NCBI GenBank assembly: GCA_021206415.1
Contig: JAJOKG010000006.1
Coordinates: 11,981 to 75,980 of the forward strand
DNA from: Sulfurospirillum sp.
GTDB lineage: Bacteria > Campylobacterota > Campylobacteria > Campylobacterales > Sulfurospirillaceae
Direction of reading: 5' to 3'
Length of the DNA: 64,000 bases
Part shown: positions 462 through 63,947 of the stretch, piece after piece
Numbering within the stretch: the stretch's first letter is position 1
Layout: every line of letters begins with the position of its first letter
The notes under the pieces: model-generated
Database searches by the model: none
Seen by the model: the letters and a program-made list of their open reading frames with translations, nothing else
What the model was told of the DNA's origin: nothing
Translations under genes and position numbers: made by a program

Positions 462-1219
462 AAAAGCTCTTTGTGAAGATGGTTGCAACGGCGTGCACAG
501 ATAAGTTCTACGGGACAAATATGCTCTTTAGGGTTTTGAGCTAGTGTAAACGATTCCTCTTTTGAAACATCATGAAGATAGAGTGTTTTATTCACATGCG
601 CTACTTTGGTCGCATAATTGAGTGCCACGTTGACATCGTGACTTACAATCACAATACCCACCGTTTTATTAAGAGTTTTTAGCAGTTGAAACATACTCAT
701 TTGCCCTGCAGTATCAATACTCGCCGTAGGTTCATCTAGGAAGATAATTTTGGCATCACACGCTAAAGCACGGGCAATAAAAACACGTTGGCGCTGTCCG
801 CCGGATAGGGCATTAATCTTTTGGTTTTCAAAGCCTTTCATTCCCACTGTCTCTAACATTTCATAGGCAATAGCATAATCCTCTTTGGAATAGGGTGCGA
901 AAAATTTGGATTTGGAGAGTCTTCCCATTAAAACAACATCTAAAACTTTAATGGGAAAGTCTTTATTGGCAATGGTATCTTGTGGGACATAAGCAATTTC
1001 ATGGCTTACATGTAAAGGGTTTTTCCCAAAAAGAAGCACTTCTCCATGCAAGGGTTTGAGTAATCCTATCATTATTTTTAAGAGGGTACTTTTGCCCCCG
1101 CCATTAGGTCCAATAATGGCTAAAAAGTCTTTAGAGTTGTACTGAAGGGTGATATCCTCCAGTACAGATGCGCCATCGTAGCTAAAAAAAAGGTTGTTGA
1201 TTTCGATATCGTTTTGCAT
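458..1219 (-). CDS. znuC: Zn ABC transporter ATP-binding protein
   Basis: Walker A GPNGGGKST, signature LSGGQRQR, Walker B IFLDEP; His/Cys-rich C-terminus. Confidence 0.9.
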   Translation of the reverse strand: MQNDIEINNLFFSYDGASVLEDITLQYNSKDFLAIIGPNGGGKSTLLKIMIGLLKPLHGEVLLFGKNPLHVSHEIAYVPQDTIANKDFPIKVLDVVLMGRLSKSKFFAPYSKEDYAIAYEMLETVGMKGFENQKINALSGGQRQRVFIARALACDAKIIFLDEPTASIDTAGQMSMFQLLKTLNKTVGIVIVSHDVNVALNYATKVAHVNKTLYLHDVSKEESFTLAQNPKEHICPVELICARRCNHLHKELL

Positions 1220-1231
1220 AAAGCGATTATA

Positions 1232-2089
1232 TCATTTTAGTTCTGATTCGAAGATTTCAGCCACACTAAGCATATTCTCACGCCATTCGTAGGCAAGAGG
1301 GTTGATGGTTAAGACTTTGCCATTGATTTGGGTTGCAATAGTTTGTGCGCTTTTTTGTGAGAATTGAGGAGAGACAAAAATGACTTTAACATTCTCCTCT
1401 TTTGCCTCTTCAATGATTTTTGCCAACTCTTTAGGTTTAGGCTCTTTCCCACTCACTTCAATGGCAATCTGCTCTAAATTGTAGCGTTTAGCGAAGTAGC
1501 CAAAAGAGGGGTGAAAAATAATAAATTTTCGATTTTTAACATTCGATAGCTTGTTTTGGATAGTTGCATCGAGCGTATCCAAAGAGGCATTAAATGCTTC
1601 ATAATTCTTTGTCAATGCTTTTACATGTAAAGGGTAGAGTTTGACGAGGGCATCATAAATATTTTTAGCTTGAATTTTTACAGAAATAGGATCAAGCCAG
1701 ACATGTGGATCAGGTGTACCGTGTTCATCGTGTTGATGAGCTTTTTCTTCATGGTGGTGCTCTGCCATAGGAATTTTTTCAAGTCCTTGGATGGTATCGA
1801 CGATAAGCAGTTTGGGATGAGTGCTTTTAAATTTAGGAAGCCATGCTTTTTCAAATCCATCTCCAATGCTGAAGTAGGCGTCTGAGTTGGCTAACTCTTT
1901 CATTTGTGAAGGTTTTGGCTCATAGGTGTGAGGGCTTGAACCGGGGCTTACCATAACATTTACATGTAAAAGCTCTTTTGCGATTTGTTCGACAAAATAC
2001 TTCTGAGGTACAATGCTCACCGTAACAGTTGGTTTAGCATACAAAAAGGTGCTAAAAAGTAGTGTAAAAAGTAACAAAACACGTTTCAT
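1232..2089 (-). CDS. znuA: Zn ABC transporter periplasmic binding protein
   Basis: SPHTYEP, His-rich loop EHHHEEKAHQHDEHG, DPHVWLDP, HPSFGYF; start placed at MKRVLL with AAGGAG RBS at 2095-2100. Confidence 0.9.
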   Translation of the reverse strand: MKRVLLLFTLLFSTFLYAKPTVTVSIVPQKYFVEQIAKELLHVNVMVSPGSSPHTYEPKPSQMKELANSDAYFSIGDGFEKAWLPKFKSTHPKLLIVDTIQGLEKIPMAEHHHEEKAHQHDEHGTPDPHVWLDPISVKIQAKNIYDALVKLYPLHVKALTKNYEAFNASLDTLDATIQNKLSNVKNRKFIIFHPSFGYFAKRYNLEQIAIEVSGKEPKPKELAKIIEEAKEENVKVIFVSPQFSQKSAQTIATQINGKVLTINPLAYEWRENMLSVAEIFESELK

Positions 2090-2100
2090 AAAATCTCCTT

Positions 2101-2155
2101 TGCGACTAAGTTGCATAAAATACGCAGAATCTTAATCAAATGCAACTTAGTTGTG
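2101..2155. promoter_or_regulatory. Two TGCAAC-N3-GTTGCA-type boxes, putative Zur operators
   Basis: TGCGACTAAGTTGCA (2101-2115) and TGCAACTTAGTTGTG (2141-2155) in the divergent znuA/zur intergenic region. Confidence 0.6.
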
Positions 2156-2210
2156 ACTTAATAAAAAAATTGGATACCATTCACGACAATTTACATGTAA
2201 AGAGTGGGTG

Positions 2211-3065: not shown

Positions 3066-3076
3066 AAGGAAAAATA

Positions 3077-3919: not shown

Positions 3920-3936
3920 TTTTTTAAGGAAACTGA

Positions 3937-5153: not shown

Positions 5154-6728
5154 ATGCTCAGTTATCCGTATCAAAATTTTTATGAGGTGATGTGTGCGAA
5201 TGCAAAAAACGCACCTCGAAAAACGGCTATTTTTATGGATGATAGAAAGATAAGTTATGCCAAACTCAAAGATTCGATTGATACGTTTGCGCACTTTTTA
5301 AAGCAAAGCAACATTCAAAAAGGTGACAAAGTTGCCATGATTGTAGGGAACTGTGAAGCGTTTGTGGTGGCGTTGTATGCTATCACTAAACTAGGCGCTA
5401 TTGCCGTTCCTCTCAATACCTTCTTAAAAGAAGAGGAGTTTGAGTACATCTTAAATGACTGCGATGCCAAAATGCTTGTAAGCTCCTATGCTTTTGCTAA
5501 AGAGACAAAACCTTTGTTAGAGCGCACTAAAATTGAGCGTATTATTTGGATAGAAGCGCCTTTGGATGAAAATGAGGAACGTTTCGAGACAATTTTAGCG
5601 ACAACGCTTAGGGATGTAGAAGAAGCGTGTGAGGCTAAGCTTGATGATACCGCCTGTATCGTCTATACTTCAGGAACAACAGGTAAACCTAAAGGGGCGA
5701 TGCTAAGCTACCGTAATCTCTTTTCAAATGCCATCAGTGGAGCAGAATCTTTTAAAGTTACATGTAACGATAGGTTTATTGTTTTTCTACCGATGTTTCA
5801 CAGCTTTACACTCTCCATTATGGTGCTTTTACCGATGTTTACCTGTTCTAGCATTGTCATTGTGCGCTCTGTTTTTCCTTTTGCCAATGTACTCAAACAA
5901 ACATTGCTAAAACGTGTCACCATTTTTCTAGGCGTTCCTACACTCTACAATGCCTTGTTGAAGGCAAAAATTCCATGGTATTTTATGTGGTTTAACAAAG
6001 TACGCATTTTTATCTCAGGCAGTGCGCCATTAAGTGAACAAGCACTCAATGATTTTGGTGCCAAATTTAAAAAAGCCAAACTCTTAGAGGGATATGGTTT
6101 AAGCGAGTGTTCACCTGCGGTGTGTGTAAACCGACTGGATCATCAAAAACCGCTCTCCGTTGGACTGCCTCTTCCTAGCTATGAGATTAAGATAGTGGAT
6201 GAAGAACGAATGGAAGTCGCCACAGGTGAGGTGGGTGAGATTATGGTGAAGGGTGATTGTGTGATGCAAGGCTATCTTAATCATCCTGATGCGACGGATG
6301 AGACGATTAGCAATGGTTGGTTGCTAACAGGTGATTTGGGCAAGAAGGATAAGGATGGGTTTATTTATATTGTCGATCGTAAGAAAGATTTGATTATCTC
6401 TAAAGGGATTAATATTTATCCCAGAGAAATCGAAGAGGTGATTTACAAATACGAAGGTGTAGACGCCGTAGCAGTTATTGGACTTAAAGATAAGCAGACC
6501 AAAGATGAAGAAGTCCTCGCGTTTATTCAACCTAAAGAGGATATTCAATTAAATGAAATGGAACTACGAGCGTATTTAAAACACCACCTCGCAAACTTCA
6601 AATTACCCAAACACATTTACTTTGTAGAAGAGCTACCTAAAAATGCAACAGGAAAGGTTCTAAAGCGAGTCTTAAAAGAACAGGTGGAAACAGGGGCACT
6701 TTTGCGTAAAAAAGAGAGATTAACTTAA
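5154..6728 (+). CDS. fadD: Long-chain fatty acid-CoA ligase
   Basis: YTSGTTGKPKG, EGYGLSE, GWLLTGD, DRKKDLI, LPKNATGK. Confidence 0.85.
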   Translation: MLSYPYQNFYEVMCANAKNAPRKTAIFMDDRKISYAKLKDSIDTFAHFLKQSNIQKGDKVAMIVGNCEAFVVALYAITKLGAIAVPLNTFLKEEEFEYILNDCDAKMLVSSYAFAKETKPLLERTKIERIIWIEAPLDENEERFETILATTLRDVEEACEAKLDDTACIVYTSGTTGKPKGAMLSYRNLFSNAISGAESFKVTCNDRFIVFLPMFHSFTLSIMVLLPMFTCSSIVIVRSVFPFANVLKQTLLKRVTIFLGVPTLYNALLKAKIPWYFMWFNKVRIFISGSAPLSEQALNDFGAKFKKAKLLEGYGLSECSPAVCVNRLDHQKPLSVGLPLPSYEIKIVDEERMEVATGEVGEIMVKGDCVMQGYLNHPDATDETISNGWLLTGDLGKKDKDGFIYIVDRKKDLIISKGINIYPREIEEVIYKYEGVDAVAVIGLKDKQTKDEEVLAFIQPKEDIQLNEMELRAYLKHHLANFKLPKHIYFVEELPKNATGKVLKRVLKEQVETGALLRKKERLT

Positions 6729-8553: not shown

Positions 8554-8635
8554 AGGCAGACAAGCCTTTTTGAGCACTTTTACATGTAAAGAGTGTTCAG
8601 ATGGATTTGTGGTAAAAAAAGTAAAGGAATTGCAG

Positions 8636-10324: not shown

Positions 10325-11552
10325 ATGCAAAAAGTCAATCGTCTAAAACCTTTCTTTGAGAACATCGCTTTTGAGCGTGAAGATAACCATATGATTCTCA
10401 ATTTTGGGCCTCAACACCCCAGCTCTCACGGACAATTACGCTTGATTTTAGAGCTCGATGGCGAGAAGGTTAGCAAAGCAACTCCTGATATTGGCTATTT
10501 GCACCGTGGAATGGAGAAGATGGCTGAAAATATGATTTACAATGAGTTCTTGCCGACCACTGATAGGATGGATTATATTGCCGCTAGTTCAAACAACTAC
10601 GGTTTTGCCTTAGCGGTTGAGAAGCTCATAGGTCTTGAAGTACCTAGACGTGCAAAAGTGATTCGTATGCTTTTATTGGAGCTAAATCGCATTACCTCGC
10701 ACCTTTTTTTGGTTAGCAACCCATGCGCTTGATGTTGGGGCGATGACCATCTTTTTATACACCTTTCGAGAGAGGGAGTATGCGCTGGATTTGATTGAGG
10801 ATTATTGTGGAGCAAGACTGACACACTCTTCGGTTCGTATTGGTGGCGTGCCTTTGGATTTACCCAAAGGGTGGTTGGAAAATCTCAATCGTTATATTAA
10901 CCGTTTACCCCATGATATTGCCGATTATGAAGCATTGTTGGATGAGAACCGTATTTGGAAGATGCGTTTGGAAGGTGTGGGTGTGGTTACGCCTGAGCAG
11001 GCGCAAAGTTGGGGTTGTTCGGGCCCGATGTTAAGAGGCAGTGGCATTGCGTGGGATATTCGTAAAGAAGAGCCGTATGAACTCTACGATGAGGTCGAGT
11101 TTGATGTGCCTGTGAGTACGACCTGTGATAGTTATGGACGCTATAAATTGCATATGGAAGAGATGAAACAGAGCATTCGCATTTTAAAGCAACTTATTCC
11201 GATGTATGAAGAGACAAGCCCTGAAATTATGGCGCACGCGCCACAGTATATCAGTGCTCCTAAAGAGCAGATTATGACGCAAAATTATGCTTTGATGCAA
11301 CATTTTGTCCTCGTGACACAAGGCATGCGCCCGCCTGTGGGTGAAGTCTATGTGCCAACTGAGTCGCCTAAAGGTGAGTTAGGATTTTACATTAACTCAC
11401 AAGGTGATCCTTATCCTTACCGTTTGAAACTCAGAACCCCTAGCTTTTTTCACACCGCTTTCTTGCAGGAGTTATTGGTGGGTGAGTATTTGGCGGACGT
11501 GGTGGCGATTATTGGAAATGCGAACATCGTCTTTGGCGAAATTGACAGATAA
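10325..11552 (+). CDS. nuoD: NADH:quinone oxidoreductase subunit D (frameshift at T run near 10704-10710)
   Basis: [29 protein letters not shown]-terminal GEIDR. Confidence 0.93.
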
Positions 11553-11561: not shown

Positions 11562-11801
11562 ATGCAACGCTATGATTTACGACATTTAAAAGATGATTTT
11601 TACGGACGTATGCTTGAAATTATTGAGGAGAGCGCTTTGGGTGAAGTCTCTATTTTTATGTTTGAAATAGGCGATTTTTCTCCTGTTCAAAAAAGCGCTG
11701 ATGTCATTAAAGAAGCGGGATGGACGCTGATGAACTCTCTTAAATTCAACGAAGCAGATTGGACGATTGTGGTTAAAAAAGTAAAAAGTGAAGTAGCATA
11801 A
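11562..11801 (+). CDS. nuoE: Epsilon-type small NuoE-position subunit (no 2Fe-2S cysteines)
   Basis: 79 aa, MQRYDLRHL...FEIGDF; sits between nuoD and nuoG as in Campylobacterota complex I. Confidence 0.75.
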   Translation: MQRYDLRHLKDDFYGRMLEIIEESALGEVSIFMFEIGDFSPVQKSADVIKEAGWTLMNSLKFNEADWTIVVKKVKSEVA

Positions 11802-12634
11802 TGGAAAAGAAACAGTTTATACACGCCCTGCAACAAGCTAAAAAAGAGGCTTTTGCTTTTACATGTAACGATTTTGATGTGATTATCTCCGTGGGTGTTT
11901 TGCCCTCACGCCATGATGAAGCACTGCTTCACGCTCTTCAAAACAGCGATGCCAAATTGGTCTATCTGTTTAGCATGGAAGAGGCTTCACTGGTTGAGAA
12001 AAGTGCTTTTTTTAGCCGTTATGAAGTGGGCTCGGAAGAGGGTGTTTTTGCGCTTTTAGCCAAAAGTTTTCTTTTACATGTAAAGATGCCTCACATGATT
12101 GAAACGTACTTTGAAGAGCTGGATGAGGGCTACTTGAGTGCGGAGAGCAACGTGGGTGAAGAGGAGATTGAGGTGATTGAAGCTTTGTACCAAGAAGCGA
12201 ATAAGGTATTACTTCTTTTAGGAGACGATATTCTCTCTCATCCAAGAGCTTCTCATATTGCCAAACTCGCAGGACTGATCGCCCGTTATGGAAAAGCTCA
12301 TGTGATGGTTGTGGGTGCAACAGAAGCAGATGTGAGCCTCAATGATAGTTTAGAGATGATGGATGAGGTTGCGGATATTAAGAGTTTTGATGGGGTTGTG
12401 GTCTATGAATGTCCTTTGAAGGCGGGTGAAAAAGAGGGCGTATTGATTGGATCATCCCAGTTTCAAATGGCAGCGAAAGTCAAAGAAAATGAAAGCATTG
12501 GCGTGAAAATAGGCGAAGAAGTGCATGCCTGCACCTTTGTGAAAGATGAAACGCTCAAAGGGGTGATTGGATTGATGCCCTGTGCGAAACTCAGTGGGGC
12601 GTATCCCTACCATGTTGTCAAAATAGTGAAGTGA
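11801..12634 (+). CDS. Epsilon-type NuoF-position subunit (no FMN/NADH motifs)
   Basis: RYEVGSEEGV and DEGYLSAESNVGEEE; operon position. Confidence 0.7.
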   Translation: MEKKQFIHALQQAKKEAFAFTCNDFDVIISVGVLPSRHDEALLHALQNSDAKLVYLFSMEEASLVEKSAFFSRYEVGSEEGVFALLAKSFLLHVKMPHMIETYFEELDEGYLSAESNVGEEEIEVIEALYQEANKVLLLLGDDILSHPRASHIAKLAGLIARYGKAHVMVVGATEADVSLNDSLEMMDEVADIKSFDGVVVYECPLKAGEKEGVLIGSSQFQMAAKVKENESIGVKIGEEVHACTFVKDETLKGVIGLMPCAKLSGAYPYHVVKIVK

Positions 12635-12641: not shown

Positions 12642-15119
12642 ATGAACGATATTACAATAACGATTGATGGAAAAGCGTGTCTTGCCAAAGAGGGCGAATA
12701 CGTTTTAGGCGTTGCACGTAGAAATAACATTTTTATCCCAGCACTCTGTTATGTGACCAACTGCTCACCTACGCTAGCGTGTCGTTTGTGTTTGGTGGAT
12801 ATTGATGGTAAGCGGGCATATAGCTGTAATGCCAGAGCCAAAGAGGGGATGAATGTCATCACCAAAAGTGAAGAGATTGAAAAAGAGCGCCGTGCGATTA
12901 TGGAGATTTATGATGTGAATCATCCTTTGGAGTGTGGCGTGTGCGACCAAAGTGGCGAGTGTGAGCTTCAAAACTACACCTTGCACATGGGCGTGGATGC
13001 GCAACATCACTGCATCGCAGACACGCACCGTCCAACCAAACAGTGGGGTCGCATTCATTATGATGCCTCTTTGTGTATTGTCTGTGAGCGCTGTGTGACT
13101 GTCTGTAAAGACATGATAGGCGAATCTGCCCTTAAAACCGTTCCTCGAGGTGGTGCAGAGCTGGATAAAGCATGGAAAGATAAAACCGAAAAAGATGCCT
13201 ATGCCATGTGGAATAAGCTTCAAAAGTCGATTATTGGCATTGCCAGTGGGGCGGAGAGTTTGGATTGTACGCAGTGTGGTGAGTGTACGGCGGTGTGTCC
13301 TGTGGGTGCGCTGGTAGGTTCAGACTTTCAGTACAGTTCCAATGCGTGGGAGCTGAAAAAAATCCCCGCTTCCAATCCTCATAGCAGTGATTGTTCCCTT
13401 CTTTTTTACGATGTCAAACAGACTAGCATCAGCAATCCAGAGCCAAAAATTTACCGTGTGAGCAGTGAGCATAACTACGCACCGCTTCATGCTGCCGCAC
13501 GCTATGGCTTTGACTTTCAAAATGAGGTTACATGTAAAGATGAAAAAGCTTTTGAAACGGTTGTGGAGAGCTTAAAAACAAAGGTCGATACGATTGCATT
13601 TGAGAGTTACATTACCAATGAAGAAGCACTCATTTTACAAAAGCTCAAAGAAAAGTATGGCTATAAACTCATCAATCCTGAGGCAAAACGATACCAAGAA
13701 TTTCTTAAACACTATGCTAGTACCTCAGGAAAAAGCCTTTACAGCGGTGATTTGGAGCGTGTTCGTTCCAGCAATTTTGTCGTGAGTTTCGCAAGTGCCA
13801 TCAAAACCGATAGCCCTAATGCGGGTTATGCGATGAACAATGCGATAGGCATGAACAAAGGAGCAGGGCTTTACTTTCACCCGATTGCTGATCCTGTGGT
13901 TTCAGCGTATTCGAAAAACCTTCTTTCCATTACACACAAAGTAGGTGCTGAAGAGGCGATTGCGTACTTTCTTTTAGACCTTTTTGGCGATAAAGAGGCA
14001 ATGCCAAAAGCACTGATAGATTACTTAGCAACGTTTCATACCATCGAGAAAAAAACCATTCAAGAAAACATTAAAGAAGATGTCAAAGAGATGGTGAAAG
14101 ATGAGGAGAGCGGTGAAGAAAAAGAGGTCATCACCAGTGTCAGCAAAGTGGTCGAAAAAGAGATAGAAGTTGATACCAATGCTTTAGTTTCACTCATAGG
14201 CGCTGAGGAGGATGTGAGTGATAAAATCACGAAACTGCTTGATAAAAAAGATAGTTTTAGCCTGATGGTGGGAGAAGATGTTTATGCCCATCCACGAGCG
14301 AAAAACATTGCTAAGCTTTTAGGCTTAATAGAGCGCTTTACCCCGTTTAACATAGTTATTATTCCTTCACGAACCAACACCTTAGGCGTTTCACTCATCT
14401 GTGATTTGGATGAAGAAAAAGGCAACTACATCCTAGGTTATAACACCAAAGGGGATGTCACACTAAGCGCTTTGGGCAAAGGGGATTTGGCGATGCCCGC
14501 GCTCAATCAGCAAGAGGGAACATTCACTTCTATGAATAAGCGAGTGGTTCCTACTAATGCCGCTCTTCCTTTTAAAGGCTATTATCTCAATGATATTGCC
14601 AACGCATTAGGACTTGAGACGGAGTGGACGATTGATTACACGCCTCTTTTACCTGCTCAAAAAGGGTTTAAAGCCCAAAAATTTGATGACCTTCCAAATC
14701 AGTATGAAAACGATGGAAGAGAAAATCGAGGCTATCTTTTAGAGACACAAGAGCTTACATGTAACGATGAAGTTGAGCCACTTGAGAGCTTTACATGTAA
14801 AGAGGGGGATATGGTTTATCTTGCCAATCCAGTCCACCAATTTAGTGCCTTTACCAACAAAGCGCATCAACTCAATGAAGCGGGTGCTTTATATGTCTCC
14901 AAAGATTTCTTAGAGGCTAAAAATCTTAAAAGTGGCGATATGGTCACTCTTGAAAACGATGCGGGAGCGAAGCTGGTCATTGCGCTCAAAGAGGAGCCAA
15001 TGATAGGGGGAATGATTCCTTATTTGCCAGATTTTGATACTAAAATCGATGTCACACCGTTTTTTAAAGAGGGGTATCGTTTTGCGAGTGTAACAATGAA
15101 AGGAGTTGCGCATGTTTGA
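12642..15119 (+). CDS. nuoG: NADH:quinone oxidoreductase subunit G
   Basis: IPALC, CRLC, HPLECGVCDQSGECELQ, CIVCERC, CTQCGECTAVCPVGAL. Confidence 0.95.
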   Translation: MNDITITIDGKACLAKEGEYVLGVARRNNIFIPALCYVTNCSPTLACRLCLVDIDGKRAYSCNARAKEGMNVITKSEEIEKERRAIMEIYDVNHPLECGVCDQSGECELQNYTLHMGVDAQHHCIADTHRPTKQWGRIHYDASLCIVCERCVTVCKDMIGESALKTVPRGGAELDKAWKDKTEKDAYAMWNKLQKSIIGIASGAESLDCTQCGECTAVCPVGALVGSDFQYSSNAWELKKIPASNPHSSDCSLLFYDVKQTSISNPEPKIYRVSSEHNYAPLHAAARYGFDFQNEVTCKDEKAFETVVESLKTKVDTIAFESYITNEEALILQKLKEKYGYKLINPEAKRYQEFLKHYASTSGKSLYSGDLERVRSSNFVVSFASAIKTDSPNAGYAMNNAIGMNKGAGLYFHPIADPVVSAYSKNLLSITHKVGAEEAIAYFLLDLFGDKEAMPKALIDYLATFHTIEKKTIQENIKEDVKEMVKDEESGEEKEVITSVSKVVEKEIEVDTNALVSLIGAEEDVSDKITKLLDKKDSFSLMVGEDVYAHPRAKNIAKLLGLIERFTPFNIVIIPSRTNTLGVSLICDLDEEKGNYILGYNTKGDVTLSALGKGDLAMPALNQQEGTFTSMNKRVVPTNAALPFKGYYLNDIANALGLETEWTIDYTPLLPAQKGFKAQKFDDLPNQYENDGRENRGYLLETQELTCNDEVEPLESFTCKEGDMVYLANPVHQFSAFTNKAHQLNEAGALYVSKDFLEAKNLKSGDMVTLENDAGAKLVIALKEEPMIGGMIPYLPDFDTKIDVTPFFKEGYRFASVTMKGVAHV

Positions 15120-17591: not shown

Positions 17592-19437
17592 ATGGAAAAA
17601 TATCTTTACATAGCCCTTTTTGCTCCATTAGCAAGTTCATTATTTGTCGCTCTTTTTGCTACACGTCCTAAGATGCTTTTCACAGGTGTTGTTGCTTCAA
17701 TTTTAATTGCAATTTCTATGATTTCATCCTTTATTTTACTGATGGATGTTAATACCTATGGTGCTTTACATGTAAATATGATGGACTGGATTGTTGCTGG
17801 TAATTTGTACATTCCTTTTGGATTTGTTGTCGATGAAGTTTCAGTGATTATGATGGTAACTGTGACGCTTGTTTCAACGGTTGTGCATATTTACTCTATT
17901 GGATATATGGATCATGATAAGAGTTTTAATCGATTCTTTTCGTATCTTTCTGCTTTTGTTTTTTCGATGATGATTTTAGTGATGAGTGATAACTTTGTAG
18001 GGCTTTTTATTGGCTGGGAAGGTGTGGGACTTTGTTCATGGTTACTGATTGGCTTTTGGTACCACAAGCACTCAGCTTCTTGGGCAGCCAATGAAGCCTT
18101 TATTATGAATCGTATTGCGGATCTTGGAATGCTGATGGGACTCTTCTTGATTTACTGGAACGTGGGTTCTTTACAGTATGAAGAGGTTTTTGCAGCACTG
18201 AAGGATTTAGACAGTGTTATAGTCGCAACAATTGGAATGTTCTTATTTATTGGAGCGATGGGAAAATCTGCACAGTTTCCTCTGCACACATGGCTAGCCG
18301 ATGCGATGGAAGGGCCTACGCCTGTTTCAGCACTGATTCATGCTGCAACCATGGTAACCGCAGGTGTTTATTTGGTGATTCGTTGTGGAGAGCTTTACAG
18401 TATGATTCCAGATGTTGGTTTTGCGATTGCTTCCTTAGGTGCTTTTGTAGCACTCTTTGCAGCTTCCATGGCTCTTGTGAATAATGATCTTAAACGCATT
18501 ATTGCCTATTCGACTCTTTCGCAACTTGGATATATGTTTGTTGCTGCAGGTCTTGGGGCGTATTGGATTGCGCTTTTTCACTTGATGACCCATGCCTTTT
18601 TTTAAATCCCTTCTCTTTTTGGGAGCAGGTAATGTCATGCATGCGATGCACGATGAGTTGAACATTAAAAAAAATGGGTGGGCTTTATGGTTCTATGAAA
18701 GCCACAGCCATTTTAATGAGTGTCGCTTCGGTTGCATTAGCGGGTATTTATCCTTTGGCTGGTTTCTTTTCAAAAGATAAAATTTTAGAAGTAGCGTTTA
18801 ATGAGGGGGCTTACTTTTTATGGTTTGCCTTGTTTATAGGAGCGGGTTTGACTGCATTTTATAGTTTTCGTTTAGTGATGCTCGTTTTCTTTGGTGAGAA
18901 GAGTATATTAAACATGGTTTTCATCCACACGAAGCGCAACCTTTTGTGATTTATGCTTTACTACCTTTGGGTCTTTTGGCGGTGATTGCAGGATGGTTTG
19001 AGCACAAATTTGAAGGCTTTACAACACGTCTTTTGGCACGTTATGAAATTCACATTTCTCATGGTATAGAAATCATTTTAATTGGTGCAACGCTTTGTAT
19101 TGCCGTTGGTGGTATAGTCTTTGCCATTTATAAGTATCAGCGTGGTGGATTTTCAAAAACGTGGGAAGAAGGATTTTTCTATAAACTTCTCAGTAATCAA
19201 TACTATATTCCAAAAGTGTATGAGCTTTATATTATGCGACCTTTTACGATTTTATCGCAGTTTGTATGGCAAAAAATTGATATGAAAGTGGTTGATTTTA
19301 CGGTAGACAGTATCGCAAGGACGATTTATAAAACGGGTGAGAAAAGTCGAAAAATGCAAAGTGGAAATCTCTCCGACATGCTACGTTGGATGGTTGTGGG
19401 AATAGTTGTTTTGCTTGTGTTAGCACTTTTTTTATAG
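17592..19437 (+). CDS. nuoL: NADH:quinone oxidoreductase subunit L (frameshifts near 18600, 18670, 18900; true end may be 19450)
   Basis: GWEGVG, GKSAQFPLHTWLADAMEGPTPVSALIHAATMV, GFFSKDKI. Confidence 0.92.
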
Positions 19438-24912: not shown

Positions 24913-24916
24913 TCTT

Positions 24917-24945
24917 TTTACATGTAAAACTATTTTACATGTAAA
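24917..24945. terminator. Bidirectional hairpin built from two TTACATGTAA copies between convergent pflA and miaA
   Basis: TTTACATGTAAAA-CTA-TTTTACATGTAAA: 13-bp perfect arms with a 3-nt loop. Confidence 0.55.
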
Positions 24946-25829: not shown

Positions 25830-25927
25830 TGATAGTCTCTTTGTTTTGTGCGGTTTAATGGGGCAATTATAACACTTTTAAAGGGTTTTGTTGTAAAATC
25901 AGTCCATCTTACATGTAAAGGTTTGTA

Positions 25928-27837: not shown

Positions 27838-27861
27838 CGGGTTTACATGTAAACCCGTTAT
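27834..27861. terminator. 28-bp perfect palindrome between convergent genes, centred on TTACATGTAA
   Basis: ATAACGGGTTTACATGTAAACCCGTTAT. Confidence 0.65.
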
Positions 27862-32564: not shown

Positions 32565-32565
32565 G

Positions 32566-34362: not shown

Positions 34363-34453
34363 CGTCCCTCTTTTGTTACATGTAAAGCTCGAAAAAGAGC
34401 ATTTCACTTTTAAGCTCGTATTATTTTAAGCCATTTTGGATACAATATTTACC

Positions 34454-53981: not shown

Positions 53982-55209
53982 AGAGTGTAGTTTTTGTGGA
54001 ACCAAAGAGAGTAATGATACCCGTTTAATTGCGGGTGATGATGTTTTTATTTGCGAACATTGTGTGATTTCAGCCTATAAGATTTTCTTTGGAGAGATTC
54101 CAGATGCGTCTGTTTCAGGGCAAATGCAAGAAGAGACGTTCAATCCAACTTTGCTGACACCTAAAGAGTTAAAAAAAGTTTTAGATGATTTTGTGATTGG
54201 GCAAGATCAAGCAAAAAAGATTTTCTCGGTTGGTGTTTATAATCATTATAAACGTATTTTTAAACAAAGTTCGATTTCTGATGATACAGAAATTTCAAAA
54301 TCAAATATTTTGCTCATTGGACCAACAGGAAGTGGAAAAACTTTGATGGCACAGACGTTGGCACGTTTTTTAGATGTGCCTATTGCAATTTCAGATGCAA
54401 CCAGCCTCACAGAAGCGGGTTATGTGGGTGAAGATGTCGAAAATATTTTGACAAAACTTCTGCAAGGTGCCAATGGTGATATTAAAAAAGCAGAGCAAGG
54501 TATTGTCTTTATTGATGAGATTGATAAAATTGCACGCATGAGTGAAAACCGCTCGATTACGAGAGATGTTTCAGGAGAGGGCGTTCAACAAGCACTCTTA
54601 AAAATCATCGAGGGTAGTGTGGTGAATATTCCACCTAAGGGTGGACGTAAACACCCTAATCAAGAGTTTATTCAAATTGATACCACCAATATTTTATTCG
54701 TATGTGCGGGTGCTTTTGATGGATTGGAAGAAATCATTAAACGTCGTATTGGTAAAAATGTTTTAGGATTTGAGCAAGAAAAGCGTAGTAAAAGTCAAGA
54801 AGAAGGCCTTTTTGATATGGTAGAGCCTGATGATTTAGTCCATTATGGTTTGATTCCTGAGCTGATTGGTCGTTTACATGTAACTGCAAAACTCTCTTCG
54901 ATTACCAAAGAAGATATGGTGCGTATCTTAACGGAGCCTAAAAATGCAATTTACAAACAATATCAAAAATTATTTGCGATTGATAATGTCGAGTTAACGT
55001 TTGAAAAAGAGGCATTAGAAGCAGTTGCAGAACTTGCAATTAAACGAAAAACAGGTGCACGTGGACTCCGAAGTATTATGGAAGAGCTTATGGTGGATGT
55101 GATGTATGAACTTCCAGAATTAGAGGGATATGAAGTGATTGTCACTCAAGATGCTGTTTTAAAAGGCGAAAAACCTCTTTATATCAAAAAAGATAAAAAA
55201 AGCGCATAA
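53971..55209 (+). CDS. clpX: ATP-dependent Clp protease ATPase subunit
   Basis: CSFC/CEHC zinc finger, [37 protein letters not shown]. Confidence 0.97.
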
Positions 55210-56252
<1,043 letters not shown>

Positions 56253-56260
<8 letters not shown>

Positions 56261-57058: not shown

Positions 57059-60000
57059 ATGCCAAAACGTCAAGATATTAAAACCATATTATTAATTGGA
57101 TCAGGTCCAATTGTCATCGGACAGGCATGTGAATTTGACTATTCGGGAACGCAAGCAGCAAAAACACTTAAAGAGTTAGGCTATCGTGTTGTTTTGGTGA
57201 ATTCAAATCCTGCGACGATTATGACTGACCCTGAGTTTGCAGATAGAACGTATATCGAACCTATTACTCCAGAAGTGATTGCACGCATTATTGAAAAAGA
57301 GAGTGTTGATGCTGTACTTCCAACGATGGGTGGGCAAACAGCGCTGAATGTTGCCATGACCATGCATGAAAAAGGGATGCTCAACAATGTCACATTTTTA
57401 GGGGCAAATCCTGCGGCCATTAAGAAAGGTGAAGATAGACAAGCTTTTAAAGAGGCGATGTTGAAAATCGGGATGGATTTACCTATTAGTGCGTATGCGT
57501 ATAATATGGAAGATGCCTATGCAGCGGCTGAAAAAATTGGATTTCCACTAATTATCCGTGCTTCGTATACTCTTGCGGGTGGCGGTAGTGGTGTTGCGTA
57601 TAATATTGATGAGTTTAAAGAGTTGGCAATGGCAGGGCTTGATGCGAGTCCAATTAATGAAATTTTGATTGAAGAATCACTCTTAGGTTGGAAAGAGTAC
57701 GAGATGGAAGTCATTCGTGATAGGGCGGATAACTGCATTATCGTTTGTTCCATTGAAAACCTAGACCCAATGGGTGTGCATACGGGAGATAGTATTACCA
57801 TTGCACCAGCGCTTACGTTAACGGATAAAGAGTATCAGCGTATGCGAAATGCTTCGTTTGCCATTTTGCGTGAGATTGGCGTCGATACGGGTGGAAGTAA
57901 CGTCCAGTTTTCAATCTGTCCTAACACAGGTCGTATGACGGTGATTGAGATGAACCCTCGTGTGAGTCGTAGTTCAGCACTTGCTTCTAAAGCGACAGGG
58001 TATCCTATTGCCAAAGTGGCGACACTTTTGGCGGTTGGTTTTACGCTTGATGAGATTAAAAATGACATTACAGGAACAGCGGCAAGTTTTGAGCCTGTGA
58101 TTGACTACATTGTGACAAAAGTGCCTCGCTTTACCTTTGAAAAATTCCCATTAGCGGACTCAACCTTGACTACTTCAATGAAGAGTGTGGGTGAAGTCAT
58201 GGCGATTGGTCGTACGTTTAAAGAGTCGTTCCAAAAGGCACTTTGTTCACTGGAGACCAATCTTAGTGGTTTTGAGAGTATGAAAGTGGATGAAGAAAAA
58301 CTCAAAAATGAGATTCGTCGCCCCAATGCGGATAGAATGCTCTATGTAGGTGAAGCGTTCCGTCGTGGGTACAGTGTGGAAGATATTTTTGCGTTAAGCA
58401 AGATTGATCCGTGGTTTTTAAATCAGTTTAAAGAGATTATTGATTTTGAAAAAAAGATCGATATGTTTATTTTAAATGATGAAAAGCTTTTGCGTCAGGC
58501 TAAAACGATGGGCTTTTCGGATAAGATGATTGCAAAACTCATTAATCAAGAAGACAATTTAGAACTGACCTCAAATGATATCTATTTTGCACGAACTAAA
58601 CTTGGCATTGATTTTGAGTACAATGAAGTCGATACCTGCGCGGCAGAGTTTAAAGCCTTAACACCGTATCTTTACTCTACTACCAATGTGACAAAACTTC
58701 CTTTACATGTAAAGAGTGAAGAGAGCCAAAAAAAAGGTGATGATTATTGGTGGTGGGCCTAACCGAATTGGTCAAGGTATCGAGTTTGACTACTGTTGTG
58801 TGCATGCAGCGTATGCGCTAAATGACATGGGTGTTAAAACCATTATGTACAACTGTAACCCTGAAACCGTTTCAACCGATTACGATACCAGCGATATTCT
58901 TTACTTTGAACCGATTGATTTTGAACACGTAAGAAATGTGGTTGAAAAAGAGAATCCAGATGGGATTATCGTTCATTTTGGTGGACAAACACCGCTTAAA
59001 TTAGCGAAGAAATTGACCGTTATGGGTGCAAAAATCATCGGTACCACCGCGCGTGTGATTGATATGGCAGAAGATAGAGAAAAATTCTCAAAATTTATTA
59101 CCGAAAATAATATCAAACAACCAAATAACGCAACTGCAACCAGCGAAGAAGAGGCGATAGAGAAAGCTAAAGAGATTGGGTATCCTGTTTTAGTACGTCC
59201 AAGTTATGTTCTAGGTGGACGTGCGATGCGTATCGTCTACAACGAGAGTGAGCTTCGAACGTATATGAACGAAGCGGTGAGTGTAAGCCATAATTCACCT
59301 GTTCTCATTGACCAGTTTTTAGATAGAGCCATTGAAGTGGATGTGGATGCGATTTGTGATGGTAAAGATGTGTACATTGGTGGCATTATGCAACATATCG
59401 AAGAAGCGGGAATTCATAGTGGCGATAGCGCATGTTCTCTGCCTAGTGTCAGTTTAAGCGATGCCATTTTGGCAAAAATTGAAGCGCAAACACAACAAAT
59501 TGCTCTTAATTTAGGTGTTGTAGGTTTGATGAACATTCAATACGCTATCTATCAAGACGATGTATATATGATTGAAGTGAATCCAAGAGCGAGTCGTACC
59601 GTACCATTTGTGAGTAAAGCAACAGGTATGCCAATGGCAAAAATAGCCACTCGTGTCATGTTTCAAGGTAATCTTAGAGAAGCGCTTAAATTTTACGATA
59701 AATTTGATGTGTTACGAGAAGAAAATGGCATTTTAAAACCTAAAAAATTTGATCATGTTGCGGTGAAAGAAGCGGTATTCCCGTTCAATAAACTTCAAGG
59801 CGCAGACCTCATTTTAGGACCTGAGATGAAATCAACAGGCGAAGTCATGGGTATTAGTAAAAACTTCCCAGCTTCATTTGCAAAAAGTCAAATCGCTTCG
59901 GCTAACGTGCTTCCAAAGAGTGGCTCTGTGTTTATCTCATTGGTCGATATTGACAAAAGTTTTGCGAAACAAATTGGTGAAAAATTTGTTCAATTAGGCT

Positions 60001-60317
60001 TTAAAGTCGTTGCCACAGGTGGTACACACAAAGCGCTTCAAGATGCGGGTGTGGAGGCTGAGTTTGTCTATAAAATCTCTGAGGGCCGTCCAAACATTGA
60101 AGATAAACTCAAAAATGGGGATATTGCGCTTGTCATTAATACGAGTGATGCTAAATCAAGTAAAGACGATGCGAAGAAAATTCGCCAAGCCGTGCTTCGT
60201 TTTAAAATCCCTTATTTTACCACCGTTGCTGCCGCTGCTGCTGCGACAGAGTCCATTGAGTACATTCAAGATAAAAGCGCACTTGAGCCACGTGCGTTAC
60301 AAGACTATTTAAACTAA
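57059..60317 (+). CDS. carB: Carbamoyl-phosphate synthase large subunit (frameshift at A run near 58730)
   Basis: [51 protein letters not shown] domain. Confidence 0.96.
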
Positions 60318-60322: not shown

Positions 60323-60763
60323 ATGAATCCCCAGCTGGTATATCTAGCCCAAACAGAGACAACAGCGGGGTTTCTCTCCCAAAATGTGGGCGCGCTTATT
60401 CAAACGAAAAACCGCCCAAGCGGTAAATCGTTTTTGATGAGTGTGGATTCGCTTAAAACCTTGCGCACCTTTACAAGAGTTCCAACATTGCATAAAAATT
60501 GTGTACGACGCTCCAAAAAAACAACGTTTGCGTATCCGTGTGGCTTAGCGATTCGTGTGGTGAAAGATGAAGCGCATTTGGAATTTTTACGCAAACTAAA
60601 ATGGAGTTACTCGACCTCTTCAAATCCCAGTGGAAAAGGTTTTGATGAAGCATTTGCCAAAGAAAAAGCGGATGTGATTGTCTTTACATGTAAAGGTTTT
60701 TTTGAAGATAAACCTTCAATGATTTACAGATTAGGAAGAGTGAAAAAGAAGCGATTGCGGTAA
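60323..60763 (+). CDS. Short Sua5/YciO/YrdC (TsaC-like) protein
   Basis: QTETTAG, KNRP..K, AIRV, STSSNPSG. Confidence 0.75.
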   Translation: MNPQLVYLAQTETTAGFLSQNVGALIQTKNRPSGKSFLMSVDSLKTLRTFTRVPTLHKNCVRRSKKTTFAYPCGLAIRVVKDEAHLEFLRKLKWSYSTSSNPSGKGFDEAFAKEKADVIVFTCKGFFEDKPSMIYRLGRVKKKRLR

Positions 60764-61550: not shown

Positions 61551-61591
61551 TTTATACTCCTAATGTATTTTTTATGGTTTCAAAACTTTCT

Positions 61592-62431
61592 TCAAGTAAC
61601 TTTTTTTAAAGGCTCATCGCTGTATTCGGTAATGGTTTTTGCTTCAACCATCGCTTGTGTAAAGGCTTTGTTGTAAGGAATACTCTTTACATGTAAAATG
61701 GATTCTTCTCTCAAAAAGGCTTCAATCTGCGCACATACTTCAGGATTTAAGTCGGCTTTGTTAATAATACATCCCGCTTTAATACGAAATTTTTTTACGA
61801 CTTCATAGACCCGTTTTAAATCATGTAGTCCTGAAAGGGTTGGCTCCGTCACGAGTAAAGCAAAGTTAGCACCACTCAAGGAAGAGACCACCGGACAGCC
61901 AATGCCAGGTGAGCCATCCACAATCATCAAGGATTTGTTCTTTGCTAAAGCTATGGCTTTGCCCTCTTTTTTGACTTTAGCGACCAGTTTTCCTGAATTC
62001 TCAGCGCCAATACCCAGTTTTGCATGCACCATATCGCTTCCGTATTTGGTAGAAGAGGCAAACCACGCTCCCGCCAAACGCTCATTCATGGAAATGGCAT
62101 TAAGTCGGCACACTTTTTCACAGTAACCACATCCCTCACAGGAGAGCTCATCGACAACATAGCGACCATTTTGTAAGACAATCGCATCAAAACGGCACAC
62201 CTTCGCACATCGTCCGCAATTACGGCAGGTATCAGGATCAATATGGGCTAAAACACCGCTGTAAAAATCCTCTTTGTGATCAAAATCTGGCTGAAGTAAA
62301 AGATGCATATCCGCTGCGTCCACATCGCAATCCACAACCACACAGGACTCTTTGGCTAAACTTGCCAGCGCTGCGGTAATGGAGGTTTTTCCCGTACCAC
62401 CTTTGCCTGAAATAACAACAATCTCTTTCAT
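61592..62431 (-). CDS. MinD/ParA-type P-loop ATPase with inserted 2x[4Fe-4S] domain (COG1149); true stop may be near 61552
   Basis: SGKGGTGKT, DCDVDAAD, CRNCGRCAKVC, CEGCGYCEKVC, DGSPGIGCPV, TEPT.SGLHDL. Confidence 0.88.
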   Translation of the reverse strand: MKEIVVISGKGGTGKTSITAALASLAKESCVVVDCDVDAADMHLLLQPDFDHKEDFYSGVLAHIDPDTCRNCGRCAKVCRFDAIVLQNGRYVVDELSCEGCGYCEKVCRLNAISMNERLAGAWFASSTKYGSDMVHAKLGIGAENSGKLVAKVKKEGKAIALAKNKSLMIVDGSPGIGCPVVSSLSGANFALLVTEPTLSGLHDLKRVYEVVKKFRIKAGCIINKADLNPEVCAQIEAFLREESILHVKSIPYNKAFTQAMVEAKTITEYSDEPLKKVT

Positions 62432-63294
62432 TGCGCAGCTCCTTGAAAACGTGCTTTTACATGTAAAGCTATTTTTTCGATTTCATCTTTAAAAGATGGA
62501 ATCTCTTTATAGATAAGTTTTCCCGCCGAATAGAGCTTTGCTGCTTCAATCAAATGAGGAATTTTCCCGATAACAGGGATGTTTTCTCTTTGGCAATACG
62601 CTACAACATCCTCATTTCCCATGCCATAACGGTTAATGACCACCCCAAACTCTTTTCCTAAAATGCGTGTCGTCTCAACCGCAAGTGTTAAATCGTGCAA
62701 ACCAAAAGGAGTGGGCTCAGTCACTAAAATGACAAAATCTGCATCTTTAATCGCCTCAATCACAGGGCAAGACGTCCCTGGAGGTGAATCAAAAAGCTTC
62801 ATGGTTTCATCATCAAAATGTTGATCAACATATTTTTTAGTCTGCGCAATCAATGAGACGGCTTGTTCTTCTCCGATATTTAAACGACCTTCCACAAACT
62901 CAATATTTCCTGCAAGAAAATGGCTCAGTTCGCCCATTTTTTGAGGCTCCATCGGCAGTGAACCCAGTGAGCAAAGTTCCGAACAGGCGTAGCAACTGTG
63001 GCAGAGATTGGGGAAGACTAAAATCTCATTCGCAATGCAAAGAAGGGCGTTGAAATTACAGTTTTCAACGCATTCACCACATAGAGTACATGAAGTGCTA
63101 TCCCAATGAGGAATCATCTTCATTTTATCCTCTTTGCGTAAGAGTTCGCCTTGTAAAAAGAGGTTGGAATTGGGTTCTTCCACATCCAAATCAACCAAAA
63201 CAGTGCTTTGACTCTCTCCTAAAAATGTTGCAAGATTGGTGGAAAGGGTTGTTTTCCCCGTTCCACCTTTACCGCTAGCTATGGCTATTTTCAT
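62428..63294 (-). CDS. MinD/ParA-type P-loop ATPase with inserted 2x[4Fe-4S] domain (COG1149)
   Basis: SGKGGTGKTT, DLDVEEPN, CTLCGECVENC, CHSCYACSELC, DSPPGTSCPV, TEPTPFGLHDL. Confidence 0.88.
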   Translation of the reverse strand: MKIAIASGKGGTGKTTLSTNLATFLGESQSTVLVDLDVEEPNSNLFLQGELLRKEDKMKMIPHWDSTSCTLCGECVENCNFNALLCIANEILVFPNLCHSCYACSELCSLGSLPMEPQKMGELSHFLAGNIEFVEGRLNIGEEQAVSLIAQTKKYVDQHFDDETMKLFDSPPGTSCPVIEAIKDADFVILVTEPTPFGLHDLTLAVETTRILGKEFGVVINRYGMGNEDVVAYCQRENIPVIGKIPHLIEAAKLYSAGKLIYKEIPSFKDEIEKIALHVKARFQGAAQ

Positions 63295-63740
63295 GCTCTT
63301 TCCTCTCCTGTATGACAACATACTCCATGTCCAAAGCCCTTGGCAAAATCAACCAATTCACTTGAATGACACAAAGGACACTCTTTTTTCTCTTCTAAAA
63401 TATTGACACGAAAACGATGGTTGCAGGCTTTGCATTGGTAAACATTTTCTTTAAAATGCACACTTCCTCCATCAATCACCACTTTAGAGCCTTCAACAAG
63501 CATCAACGCTATTTTTTTACGGGCACGCTCTACTAACCTCGTGAAGGTTGAGCGAGAAATTCCCATCATTTCAGATGCCTTTTCATGTTCTAAGCTTTCA
63601 TAATCCGCCAATCGAATCGCTTCGTACTCATCAAGCTCTAGGATAATGGTTTCAAGTTTAGTTCCTGCAACACCTGCAGGCTTAAAGGTGGTAAATAAGG
63701 GAGGGTGACTCACCGCTCTTGCTTTTGGATTCCGTGCCAT
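63291..63740 (-). CDS. DUF134-family HTH protein with C-terminal zinc ribbon
   Basis: MARNPKAR, FKPAG, DEYEAIRLAD, MGISRSTF..ARKKIA; CKAC, CPLC and terminal CCH. Confidence 0.88.
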   Translation of the reverse strand: MARNPKARAVSHPPLFTTFKPAGVAGTKLETIILELDEYEAIRLADYESLEHEKASEMMGISRSTFTRLVERARKKIALMLVEGSKVVIDGGSVHFKENVYQCKACNHRFRVNILEEKKECPLCHSSELVDFAKGFGHGVCCHTGEERA

Positions 63741-63768
63741 AAGGTCTCACTTTTAATAAATTAGAGCC

Positions 63769-63821
63769 ATTATAATACACATATGTGCATAATGTCAAGA
63801 GTAAATATGCACATATGTGCA
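63769..63821 (-). promoter_or_regulatory. Sigma70 promoter of the DUF134 operon with two CACATATGTG palindromes
   Basis: Minus strand TTGACA (63798-63793), 18-nt spacer, TATAAT (63774-63769); palindromes at 63775-63790 and 63808-63821. Confidence 0.7.
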
Positions 63822-63947
63822 AAAATAGTTTTACATGTAAAGATTCCAATGTGAAAAATAAATTCTTCAATATTCATTTAAATTTTAAATTGTTTGATAT
63901 AGAATCTCCCAGAAAGAGTGTCATAAAAAATTTTAGGGAGAGGGTTG

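Follow-up and report, generated by a model that had tools for sequence, protein, structure and literature searches.

A genome-wide iterated palindrome with helically phased A+T flanks in Sulfurospirillum: a putative self-DNA signal

The window analysed here is a whole stretch of 64,000 nucleotides from the genome of a Sulfurospirillum sp. (assembly GCA_021206415.1, referred to as G000; contig JAJOKG010000006.1, window G000:C61:11981-75980). The element in question is a ten-base-pair palindrome, TTACATGTAA, which an earlier note, made from the letters of the window, had singled out as a candidate DNA-uptake or chromosome-organising signal resembling the highly iterated palindrome of cyanobacteria (HIP1). 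The analysis revealed that this word is iterated over the whole genome, is restricted to a few lineages, is conserved beyond protein constraint and lies at the centre of a two-sided wave of A+T content with a period of 11.25 bp. We tentatively favour, at a little under an even chance, the reading that it is a putative site recognised by a two-fold symmetric DNA-bending protein and favouring the DNA that carries it in transformation or recombination, that is, a self-DNA signal.

Abundance of the motif and its invariant core

The recount of the window gave 30 exact copies from 1006 to 63840 against 0.19 expected, the same as the 30 and about 0.2 of the earlier note, and none of 100 dinucleotide shuffles of the window reached this number (maximum, 2). 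The division into 23 coding and 7 intergenic copies was also upheld. The seven one-mismatch copies named by the earlier note all exist, and those at 22285 and 34129 were added, but the resulting 9 are only a mild excess over the expectation of about 3.4.

The excess is not restricted to the window, since the G000 assembly (2.09 Mb, 38.4% G+C, 86% complete) holds 1,049 copies, which make the word its most frequent 10-mer, with densities of 0.27-0.93 per kb across the 45 longest contigs. According to crude gene calls, 632 copies are genic, 359 are intergenic and 58 are at contig edges; the genic ones are read in the LHV frame (410), in the TC frame (193) or in a stop-ending frame (29). Concerning the codon-preserving shuffling that the earlier note had proposed as a check, the enrichment persists: 625 coding copies were observed versus 2.7 after shuffling codon order and 68 after shuffling synonymous codons (10 shuffles each). 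The proteome of G000 carries the imprint as a 7-9-fold peptide enrichment, with LHV found 511 times versus 56 for the reversed VHL, and TCK 187 times versus 26 for KCT. The retention of sites is strong enough to alter protein sequences.

The consensus in G000 is tcTTTACATGTAAAga, a perfect palindrome, and within it the 8-mer TACATGTA is the invariant core, the extensions being lineage-specific. The earlier note had recognised the palindrome, but it overlooked both this core and its central position in the two-sided wave described below. In G000 the outer base varies to C in 85 copies and to G in 29, and one-off variants at the eight inner positions amount to 89 versus 57-59 from a masked Markov model. 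Since these one-off cores stay near the background, the core appears to be read in a nearly all-or-none manner. The 8-mer is invariant over 80 genomes (1,128 copies in G240, 1,110 in G284, 914 in G326, 850 in G271, 611 in G196 and 608 in G180), whereas its flanks follow lineage dialects: just 96 of the copies in G271 form the 10-mer, and the dialect of G180 is CTTACATGTAAG. In G337, G356, G320 and G328, the core is moderately over-represented (80-188 versus 21-30 for the control) with few 10-mers, possibly as further flank dialects or remnants, with one genome in a third family. As for other words, G000 avoids GGCC, CGCG and CCGG (0.22-0.24 of expected) and GATC (0.40), and TAAGAC/GTCTTA is mildly over-represented.

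Evolution and placement of the sites

Orthologues were aligned without gaps at 79 of 84 sites in G018, 42 of 45 in G016, 31 of 35 in G009 and 64 of 71 in G010. The gap rate is close to the 5-7% background, and the gapped cases printed (G018 and G010) are gene-end misalignments or 3-bp gaps. The sites arise by substitution, without indels. A footprint of Tc1/IS630-type transposons, with 6 bp inserted at TA, was considered at this point: we take the core to match the Tc1 excision footprint, and a 6-bp insertion would preserve the reading frame, but the ungapped alignments led to the rejection of this explanation, which we regard as extremely improbable.

Among the ungapped orthologues, the site is identical in 71 of 79 cases in G018, 36 of 42 in G016 and 21 of 31 in G009, while random 10-mers are identical in 38%, 18% and 10%, respectively. 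Third-position identity within the motif reaches 98.7%, 97.4% and 97.3% in the same genomes versus 75.6%, 64.2% and 54.4% for the background. The sites are therefore conserved beyond protein constraint. The scaled strength of selection or drive was 4.5-5.1 from conservation, by a crude conversion, and 4.7-6.7 from enrichment, and the agreement of both is consistent with a simple all-or-none balance. For the DNA uptake sequences (DUS) of Neisseriaceae, a strength of about 4 has been reported.

The density of sites depends on the kind of DNA. Coding density is 0.70 per kb in genes of 55-70% identity and 0.097 per kb in genes of at least 90% identity. By third-position G+C, it is 0.116 per kb in the lowest eighth of genes versus 0.43-0.57 in the upper half. 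Gaps between convergent genes hold 2.4 sites per kb (91 in 37 kb), other gaps 1.0-1.2 and genes 0.37, and sites accumulate 5-20 bp past stop codons. The longest motif-free stretches are foreign-looking islands and the ribosomal-protein operon (0 copies in 10 kb). Plasmid NZ_CP045454.1 has 4 copies in 38 kb; in plasmid NZ_CP118374.1, of which 100 of 200 kb were read, there are 2 copies in 50 kb of backbone and 10 in the 50 kb with a cobamide and dehalogenase cluster. The first plasmid also has 13 cores in two clusters (L528:7062-7605 and 27938-28804), four of them in a broken copy of the D12-type methyltransferase family and five near an S24-peptidase gene.

Spacing between neighbouring sites is random (coefficient of variation 0.91-1.12) with no exclusion zone, and a 52-site subsample of the complete G016 chromosome is uniform (Kolmogorov-Smirnov p 0.77). 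The earlier note had also raised a parallel with SlmA, Noc and MatP sites. These, like parS, are palindromes of dimeric chromosome-binding proteins, but they are few and tied to the origin or terminus, whereas the motif is iterated about 1,000-fold and is uniform. Two canonical parS sites were found, separately from the motif, in each of five genus genomes, and ParB is present. A role as parS or as an origin or terminus site was thus discarded.

Taxonomic distribution and loss

All 24 genus relatives sampled have the 10-mer (49-1,496 copies), while 16 genomes from 16 other families have 0-6. Among 400 genomes of the phylum, counts are high in 16 of 19 members of the same family (5-10 in the other three), 6 of 34 members of a second family have 32-589 copies, and the remaining 347 stay at the background of 0-9. 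Together with the conservation of the sites, this survey bears out the lineage-restricted, genome-wide iterated signal that the earlier note had proposed, and shows it to be under strong constraint. None of the refuting conditions of the earlier note that were checked was borne out. When named genomes were scanned for close pairs (9 of 64 parts, 121 loci), most loci came from Sulfurospirillum, Sulfurospirillaceae and Sulfurimonas/Sulfurimonadaceae, with one Arcobacter metagenome-assembled genome; 95 loci were assigned to Campylobacterota and 26 to other groups. The Arcobacter genome (CP093061.1; L416, L445, L454) has three close pairs, and in family f10 the sampled genomes of Arcobacter size do not rise above background. 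No run of Campylobacterota-like genes was found in 54 viral loci with a pair (at most 8 copies per locus), a set that has little bearing on the phages of these hosts.

In a GyrA tree, high counts appear in early-branching family members and low counts are nested at several places. The motif-poor G010 groups with the motif-rich G009 (90% bootstrap, 11 genes, outgroup included). The 68 shared genes contain 28 coding sites, of which G000, G018, G016 and G009 all retain 18 and G010 not a single one. Two stretches of G010 still have 0 of 64 and 3 of 70 sites, and this genome contains decayed intergenic pairs and preserves a peptide fossil (LHV 71 versus VHL 23; TCK 22 versus KCT 7). This pattern of retention and decay indicates that the ancestor of the genus had the motif, which can be lost. 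At one site, G010 has the sequence of the outgroup, so gene transfer accounts for some cases. The motif has decayed repeatedly in separate lineages and is hence dispensable, and protein evolution is not faster in G010 despite the loss. Four-fold G+C is 0.28 in G010 versus 0.39 in the G000 orthologues; a drift in G+C as a sign of lost recombination was rejected, as it is seen in G010 but not over 30 gyrA genes.

Helically phased A+T flanks

The A+T content oscillates on both sides of each site with a reach of about 130 bp. The fitted wave has an amplitude of 0.119, a period of 11.25 +/- 0.04 bp and a decay length of 64 +/- 9 bp. Its phase is zero at the centre, so that A+T maxima fall at the centre and at about +/-11, 22 and 34 bp, and G+C maxima at about +/-16. 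Amplitude goes from 0.081 over 10-44 bp down to 0.018 at 112-146 bp, and the sites of the window alone give 0.083 +/- 0.015 (n=30). The wave is also present at 695 isolated sites and at intergenic sites. Ten control anchors off the motif remained at or below 0.018, except CTTTAAAG (0.030, n=139), far under 0.081, which excludes general A-tract periodicity as the cause; RAATTY sites in G000 are at the background level of 0.018. The wave peaks at third codon positions (0.115 +/- 0.006; 0.112 at four-fold sites), indicating a signal at the DNA level, and in genes it is equal 5' and 3' of the sites (0.061 and 0.057). Amphipathic helices, a protein-level cause, were ruled out by these positions and by the intergenic and isolated sites. 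No flip of strand skew was found at the sites (outward skews within 0.014).

At orthologous third positions, the wave is kept in the motif-rich G018, G016 and G009 (0.105-0.136) and is absent from the motif-poor G010 (0.009 +/- 0.016 versus 0.110 in G000 at the same columns). The second family shows it in the same phase and weaker (0.040 +/- 0.011 in G196, n=54; 0.040 +/- 0.016 in G180, n=28). Viral pair loci have none (0.000 +/- 0.006). Twenty-six non-Campylobacterota pair loci give 0.036 +/- 0.009, a value that counts against the specificity of the wave and is confounded by the partner copy. G000 also has a general AA/TT periodicity of 11.2 bp, whose strength of 0.014 survives masking of the sites. 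In G010 stretches, the general periodicity, of 11.3 bp, is weaker (0.010 versus 0.012-0.017).

At CAP-type sites such a phase is expected from a dimeric protein with the DNA bent towards it, and by analogy the phase found here would reflect a dimeric protein that bends DNA towards itself. Relaxed DNA has a helical repeat of about 10.5 bp; the longer period would fit right-handed wrapping or negatively supercoiled loops. The two-sided flank wave is new here.

These flanks bring in the main rival explanation, one based on chromosome organisation, which we consider rather unlikely: a sequence-specific nucleoid protein, or gyrase aided by one, would either wrap the flanks or bind the palindrome where a supercoiled loop has its tip, and more sites would make the cell slightly fitter. 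The centred, two-sided wave, symmetric in genes, is in line with it, as is AA/TT periodicity three times higher near the sites (0.042) than genome-wide, and the sites are densest between convergent genes. A single GyrA-family gene was found in 34 of 34 genomes, and ScpA, like VirB10, was not found in any of five. The Escherichia coli gyrase motif spans 130 bp and has symmetric periodic G+C/A+T flanks interpreted as wrapping (PMC6379681), HIP1 has been suggested to have a role in the nucleoid (PMC5861425), and the period and reach of the wave favour this explanation (PMC6379681, PMC13284261, PMC5861425). However, the repeated loss of the motif, without faster protein evolution in G010, the lack of regular spacing or of an exclusion zone and the empty ribosomal-protein operon do not fit an organising site. 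Besides, the gyrase motif as described is degenerate, has a 10.75-bp period and is periodic only beyond +/-17 bp (PMC6379681), unlike the strict core, 11.25-bp period and exponential decay to about +/-130 bp seen here. GyrA has no residue that goes with the motif in both families, and HU is single in 38 of 40 genomes, whether motif-rich or not.

Orphan adenine methyltransferase

G000 encodes an orphan D12-class adenine methyltransferase (C56:31939-32907), located at a conserved position in the main clade, whose phage relatives are labelled ulcer-associated adenine methyltransferase. From the homology of its family, we take this enzyme to be a candidate CATG methylase. A motif pair lies 5' of its gene only in G000, G018, G006 and G016. 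The N6/N4 and C5 methyltransferases vary among five genomes.

The co-occurrence with a methyltransferase anticipated by the earlier note stands in the raw counts and fails in finer comparisons. In the genus, the 17 of 26 genomes with the enzyme have a median of 1,127 copies (minimum 397) versus 278 in the 9 without it (p 6e-4, with kin not independent), and in the second family, where 7 of 33 genomes have the enzyme, at least 90 cores are found in 5 of 7 with it versus 2 of 26 without it. Nevertheless, it was not found in the motif-rich G196 (complete), G326, G240 and G019, it is present in the motif-free G107, G192, G049, G045 and G028, and over independent pairs the link is not significant (median p 0.625). 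The methyltransferase is associated with the motif and is neither necessary nor sufficient for it.

This matters for a functionless ratchet of the type described by Elhai (PMC4390886), in which repair or conversion bias linked to methylation would write and restore the word at methylated CATG. The higher counts of enzyme-bearing genomes in both families and the orphan gene at its conserved location would suit such a process, whereas the motif-rich genomes without the enzyme and the motif-free genomes with it would not; CATG outside the motif is under-represented in G000 (0.74), and the 130-bp phased flanks at synonymous sites are left unexplained. We judge the ratchet improbable.

Competence genes and candidate readers

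A Campylobacter-type competence apparatus is present in these genomes, ComEC being found in 64 of 65 genomes and a secretin in 63. In G000 no secretin match was found and comEC is broken, in an assembly with gyrA and many other genes split. A 145-residue basic pilin is encoded directly before priA in G000 (C43:25019-25471, minus strand), and Cj0683 of Campylobacter jejuni, a pilin of like size and place, initiates DNA uptake (PMC10046745). By this analogy, the priA-linked pilin is a candidate reader only, because the arrangement is general. It is highly variable, and none of its features followed motif density in 35 metagenome loci (one long locus being motif-rich). Its predicted model (pLDDT 84) matched nothing at E <=0.001, with just weak pilin rows beyond that. 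The surrounding cluster (G000:C43:19352-26004) has the order pilin, basic 145-residue pilin, priA, ispG-like, dnaB-like and comEC. In one single case, a close relative of G000 (L544:7501-7968; PriA 75% identical) without any core in 13.8 kb, the priA-linked pilin is only 40% identical. Elsewhere in G000 (C83:904-6144), the gene of a 1,049-residue protein precedes three pilin-like ones in what may be a pilus-tip cluster, with relatives in G180. A small ComE gene in G018 (L291:1489-1731) adjoins an rRNA-like stretch, and nearly all second-family genomes have small ComE.

ParB does not track the motif either. Subtraction of genes against the motif-poor G010 (800 kb of 2.6 Mb) left 49 syntenic gaps with no evident DNA-binding protein, and no reader gene was identified among the candidates examined.

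Comparison with known systems

HIP1 is a close parallel in several respects. As reported in PMC4390886 and 10.64898/2026.06.24.733823, it has a palindromic 8-mer core with lineage-specific palindromic extensions, occurs in genes as well as spacers at about one copy per 1-2 kb, expands through substitution, is conserved, has an imperfect link to an orphan methyltransferase and is lost in some lineages. Nonetheless, HIP1 is the GC-rich GCGATCGC or alternates in cyanobacteria, while the word here is the AT-rich TACATGTA in Campylobacterota with a D12-class adenine methyltransferase as the candidate linked enzyme. A chromosomal periodicity of 10-90 kb is a further trait of HIP1; in the motif, neighbouring sites are randomly spaced.

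The DUS of Neisseriaceae and the uptake signal sequences (USS) of Pasteurellaceae resemble the motif in copy number, in a conservation of about 97%, in occupying permissive locations, in being absent from DNA acquired recently, in enriching tripeptides, in forming hairpin pairs where genes end and in having flank dialects (PMC2397512, PMC2817400), and helically phased T-tracts have been described for USS too (PMC3458573). The differences are that DUS and USS cores are non-palindromic and of 9-12 bp, and that tripeptide enrichment is about 2-fold in them versus 7-9-fold here. RAATTY, linked to CtsM in C. jejuni, is also an AT-rich palindrome associated with an orphan adenine methyltransferase, in the same order and with the same type of competence apparatus (PMC10046745, 10.1101/2024.09.10.611283); the word described here is longer, rarer (1 per 2 kb versus 1 per 60 bp) and far more enriched, and the methyltransferase is missing from several motif-rich genomes. 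The motif is thus HIP1-like and DUS/USS-like and a member of neither class, since sequence, host and symmetry differ. No description of it was found in the literature searched, with subscription papers and supplements outside the scope; in a comparative genomics paper (PMC8865925), only CRISPR is mentioned concerning palindromes.

Weighing the self-DNA reading

Abundance, the all-or-none core, gain by substitution, conservation, the proteome imprint and the depletion from foreign DNA make up an evolutionary record like that of DUS and USS. A methylated palindrome gates uptake in C. jejuni, in the same order and with the same apparatus, where ComE is dispensable (PMC10046745), and HIP1 raises transformation in a way that depends on methylation (10.1101/2024.09.10.611283). 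Under the self-DNA reading, the palindrome, where A+T peaks in the middle and again at every multiple of 11.25 bp while G+C peaks near +/-16, would be recognised by a dimeric reader round which the DNA would be bent or wrapped. The advantage would take effect during uptake or when the DNA recombines into the supercoiled chromosome, and sites would accumulate through the favouring of DNA that carries them. Adenine methylation of the central CATG may modulate recognition without being required.

Several results weigh against this reading. The methyltransferase link disappears over independent pairs. No competence gene among ComEC, secretin, small ComE and the PilB/PilT ATPases tracks the motif: ComEC, secretin, a PilT-like ATPase and the priA-linked pilin also occur in motif-free genomes, small ComE is found in 1 of 26 genus genomes, and the PilT/PilU-like ATPase has a premature stop in the motif-poor G010 (L347:2056-2058) and is truncated in the motif-rich G009 (C1:274808-275764). 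The period of 11.25 bp is that of the genome-wide AA/TT signal and exceeds that of relaxed DNA, which points to supercoiled intracellular rather than linear extracellular DNA. As far as the description in PMC3458573 goes, the phased tracts of USS are just two and on one side, whereas the signal here is two-sided and spans about 12 helical turns. HIP1 sites differ as well, since 162 of them from two cyanobacterial plasmids, no chromosomes being included, give a wave of 0.013 +/- 0.007, and one-off HIP1 words are reported to be common while one-mismatch cores here are near background.

The self-DNA and organising readings are not exclusive, because recombination acts on the supercoiled chromosome. 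A bolder form that would join them is a chromatin-positioning code, which we hold to be doubtful: about 1000 strict palindromes would each centre some 250 bp of pre-curved DNA that a sequence-specific protein wraps or loops. Selection on this code would be strong enough to change codons and amino acids, two families would have gained and lost it as one module, and it might also serve as a self-DNA mark for transformation.

Copies in the window

The features are listed by position in the window; where a strand is given, it is that of the open reading frame (ORF).

1006-1015: copy in the Zn/Mn ABC ATPase ORF 458-1219 (minus strand), LHV frame
1621-1630: copy in the metal-binding protein ORF 1232-2116 (minus strand), LHV frame
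1960-1969: second copy in the same ORF 1232-2116 (minus strand), LHV frame
2191-2200: intergenic copy in a divergent gap
5758-5767: copy in an acyl-CoA ligase gene, TC frame; common to G018, G016 and G009, lost in G010
8580-8589: copy 5' of the NuoA match, intergenic on the basis of the family match
11859-11868: copy in ORF 11801-12634, TC frame
12074-12083: copy in ORF 11801-12634, LHV frame
13528-13537: copy in nuoG, TC frame
14755-14764: copy in nuoG, TC frame
14789-14802: nuoG copy extended to 14 bp, 36 bp away from that at 14755
17766-17775: copy in nuoL, LHV frame
24909-24955: two paired copies (24918 and 24935) where convergent genes end; hairpin of -18.3 kcal/mol, z -6.7, presumably acting as a terminator
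25469-25478: copy in miaA, LHV frame
25909-25918: intergenic copy in a divergent gap
27834-27861: 28-bp perfect palindrome around the copy at 27843, between convergent genes; hairpin of -14.5 kcal/mol, z -4.0
31107-31116: copy in the 3' piece of moeA, TC frame
31715-31724: copy in the 5' piece of moeA, LHV frame
33166-33175: copy in rsmE, TC frame
34376-34385: intergenic copy, 14 bp past a stop codon
36839-36848: copy in the final codons of ORF 36041-36856, retained in the motif-poor G020 too
42400-42409: copy in purF, LHV frame; one mismatch in the G018 orthologue
49953-49970: 18-bp extended copy in the 941-residue ORF 48656-51481 (minus strand)
54874-54883: copy in clpX, LHV frame; peptide but not DNA word retained in G010
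58701-58714: 14-bp extended copy in carB
60682-60695: 14-bp extended copy in ORF 60323-60763, TC frame
61687-61696: copy in ORF 61592-62431 (minus strand), LHV frame
62457-62466: copy in ORF 62428-63321 (minus strand), LHV frame
63831-63840: intergenic copy
880-63970: phased flanks, about 130 bp either side of every copy; a mean 11.25-bp A+T wave of statistical nature, with no fixed sequence

The three 14-bp extensions and the 18-bp palindrome are present as the earlier note gave them, but 18 bp is not the maximum, since the 28-bp palindrome at 27834-27861 had been overlooked. Several genes of the window are split in two frames (nuoD 10325-11552, nuoL 17592-19437, moeA 30917-32072, rsmE 32512-33233, mreB 55225-56260 and carB 57059-60317), and the same holds for gyrA and comEC in other parts of G000; sequencing or assembly indels are the probable cause.

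Close pairs and the same word in other bacteria

There are 66 pairs within 60 bp in G000, mostly at gene ends, and they fold as hairpins. Paired sites show weak helical phasing relative to each other (p 0.001-0.06 by range), and a peak at 20-23 bp is equally expected of a hairpin. The pairs past stop codons may have been co-opted as terminator hairpins.

The identical 10-mer also occurs as a pair directly 5' of a DUF2170-PspA operon in 10 gammaproteobacterial loci. These come from marine and soil Gammaproteobacteria (L420, L422, L429, L433, L434, L447, L449, L463, L467 and L480; about 1501-1535), with the two copies 20-24 bp apart, and the first protein of the DUF2170 and PspA/IM30 operon has a conserved, unannotated N-terminal extension of about 50 residues. 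The pair is likely an autoregulatory operator, with the extension as its putative DNA-binding module. In the alphaproteobacterial loci L435, L439 and L472 (about 1501-1532), the paired word has GTTACATGTAAC flanks, and a neighbouring frame weakly matches the N-terminal module (E 0.005).

These loci suggest a further explanation, namely the spread of the operator of a small repressor (e.g., of ribbon-helix-helix type) or of a terminator repeat with no link to uptake or topology. The paired operator-like copies, the accumulation 5-20 bp past stop codons and the folding of pairs as hairpins would be accounted for in this way, but 632 of the 1,049 sites are genic and alter amino acids, the DUF2170-linked module has no relative in G000 (best E 0.59), and no recurring family was found 3' of the pairs, nor any recurring regulator family or autoregulated reader among the genes adjoining them. 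It would be surprising if this explanation held.

Significance

For thirty years there has been no agreement on what HIP1 does, and sequence-specific uptake signals are established in few bacterial groups. Sulfurospirillum offers an independent, AT-rich case in culturable, non-pathogenic bioremediation bacteria, in which close relatives that keep or lose the motif are natural controls. The phased flanks give a physical clue to the reader, which may be a bending protein of two-fold symmetry, and to the geometry of supercoiled DNA. If the motif is an architectural site, it would be a rare sequence-encoded code for DNA positioning in bacteria; should it serve in uptake or recombination instead, DNA provided with the word could make Sulfurospirillum genetically tractable.

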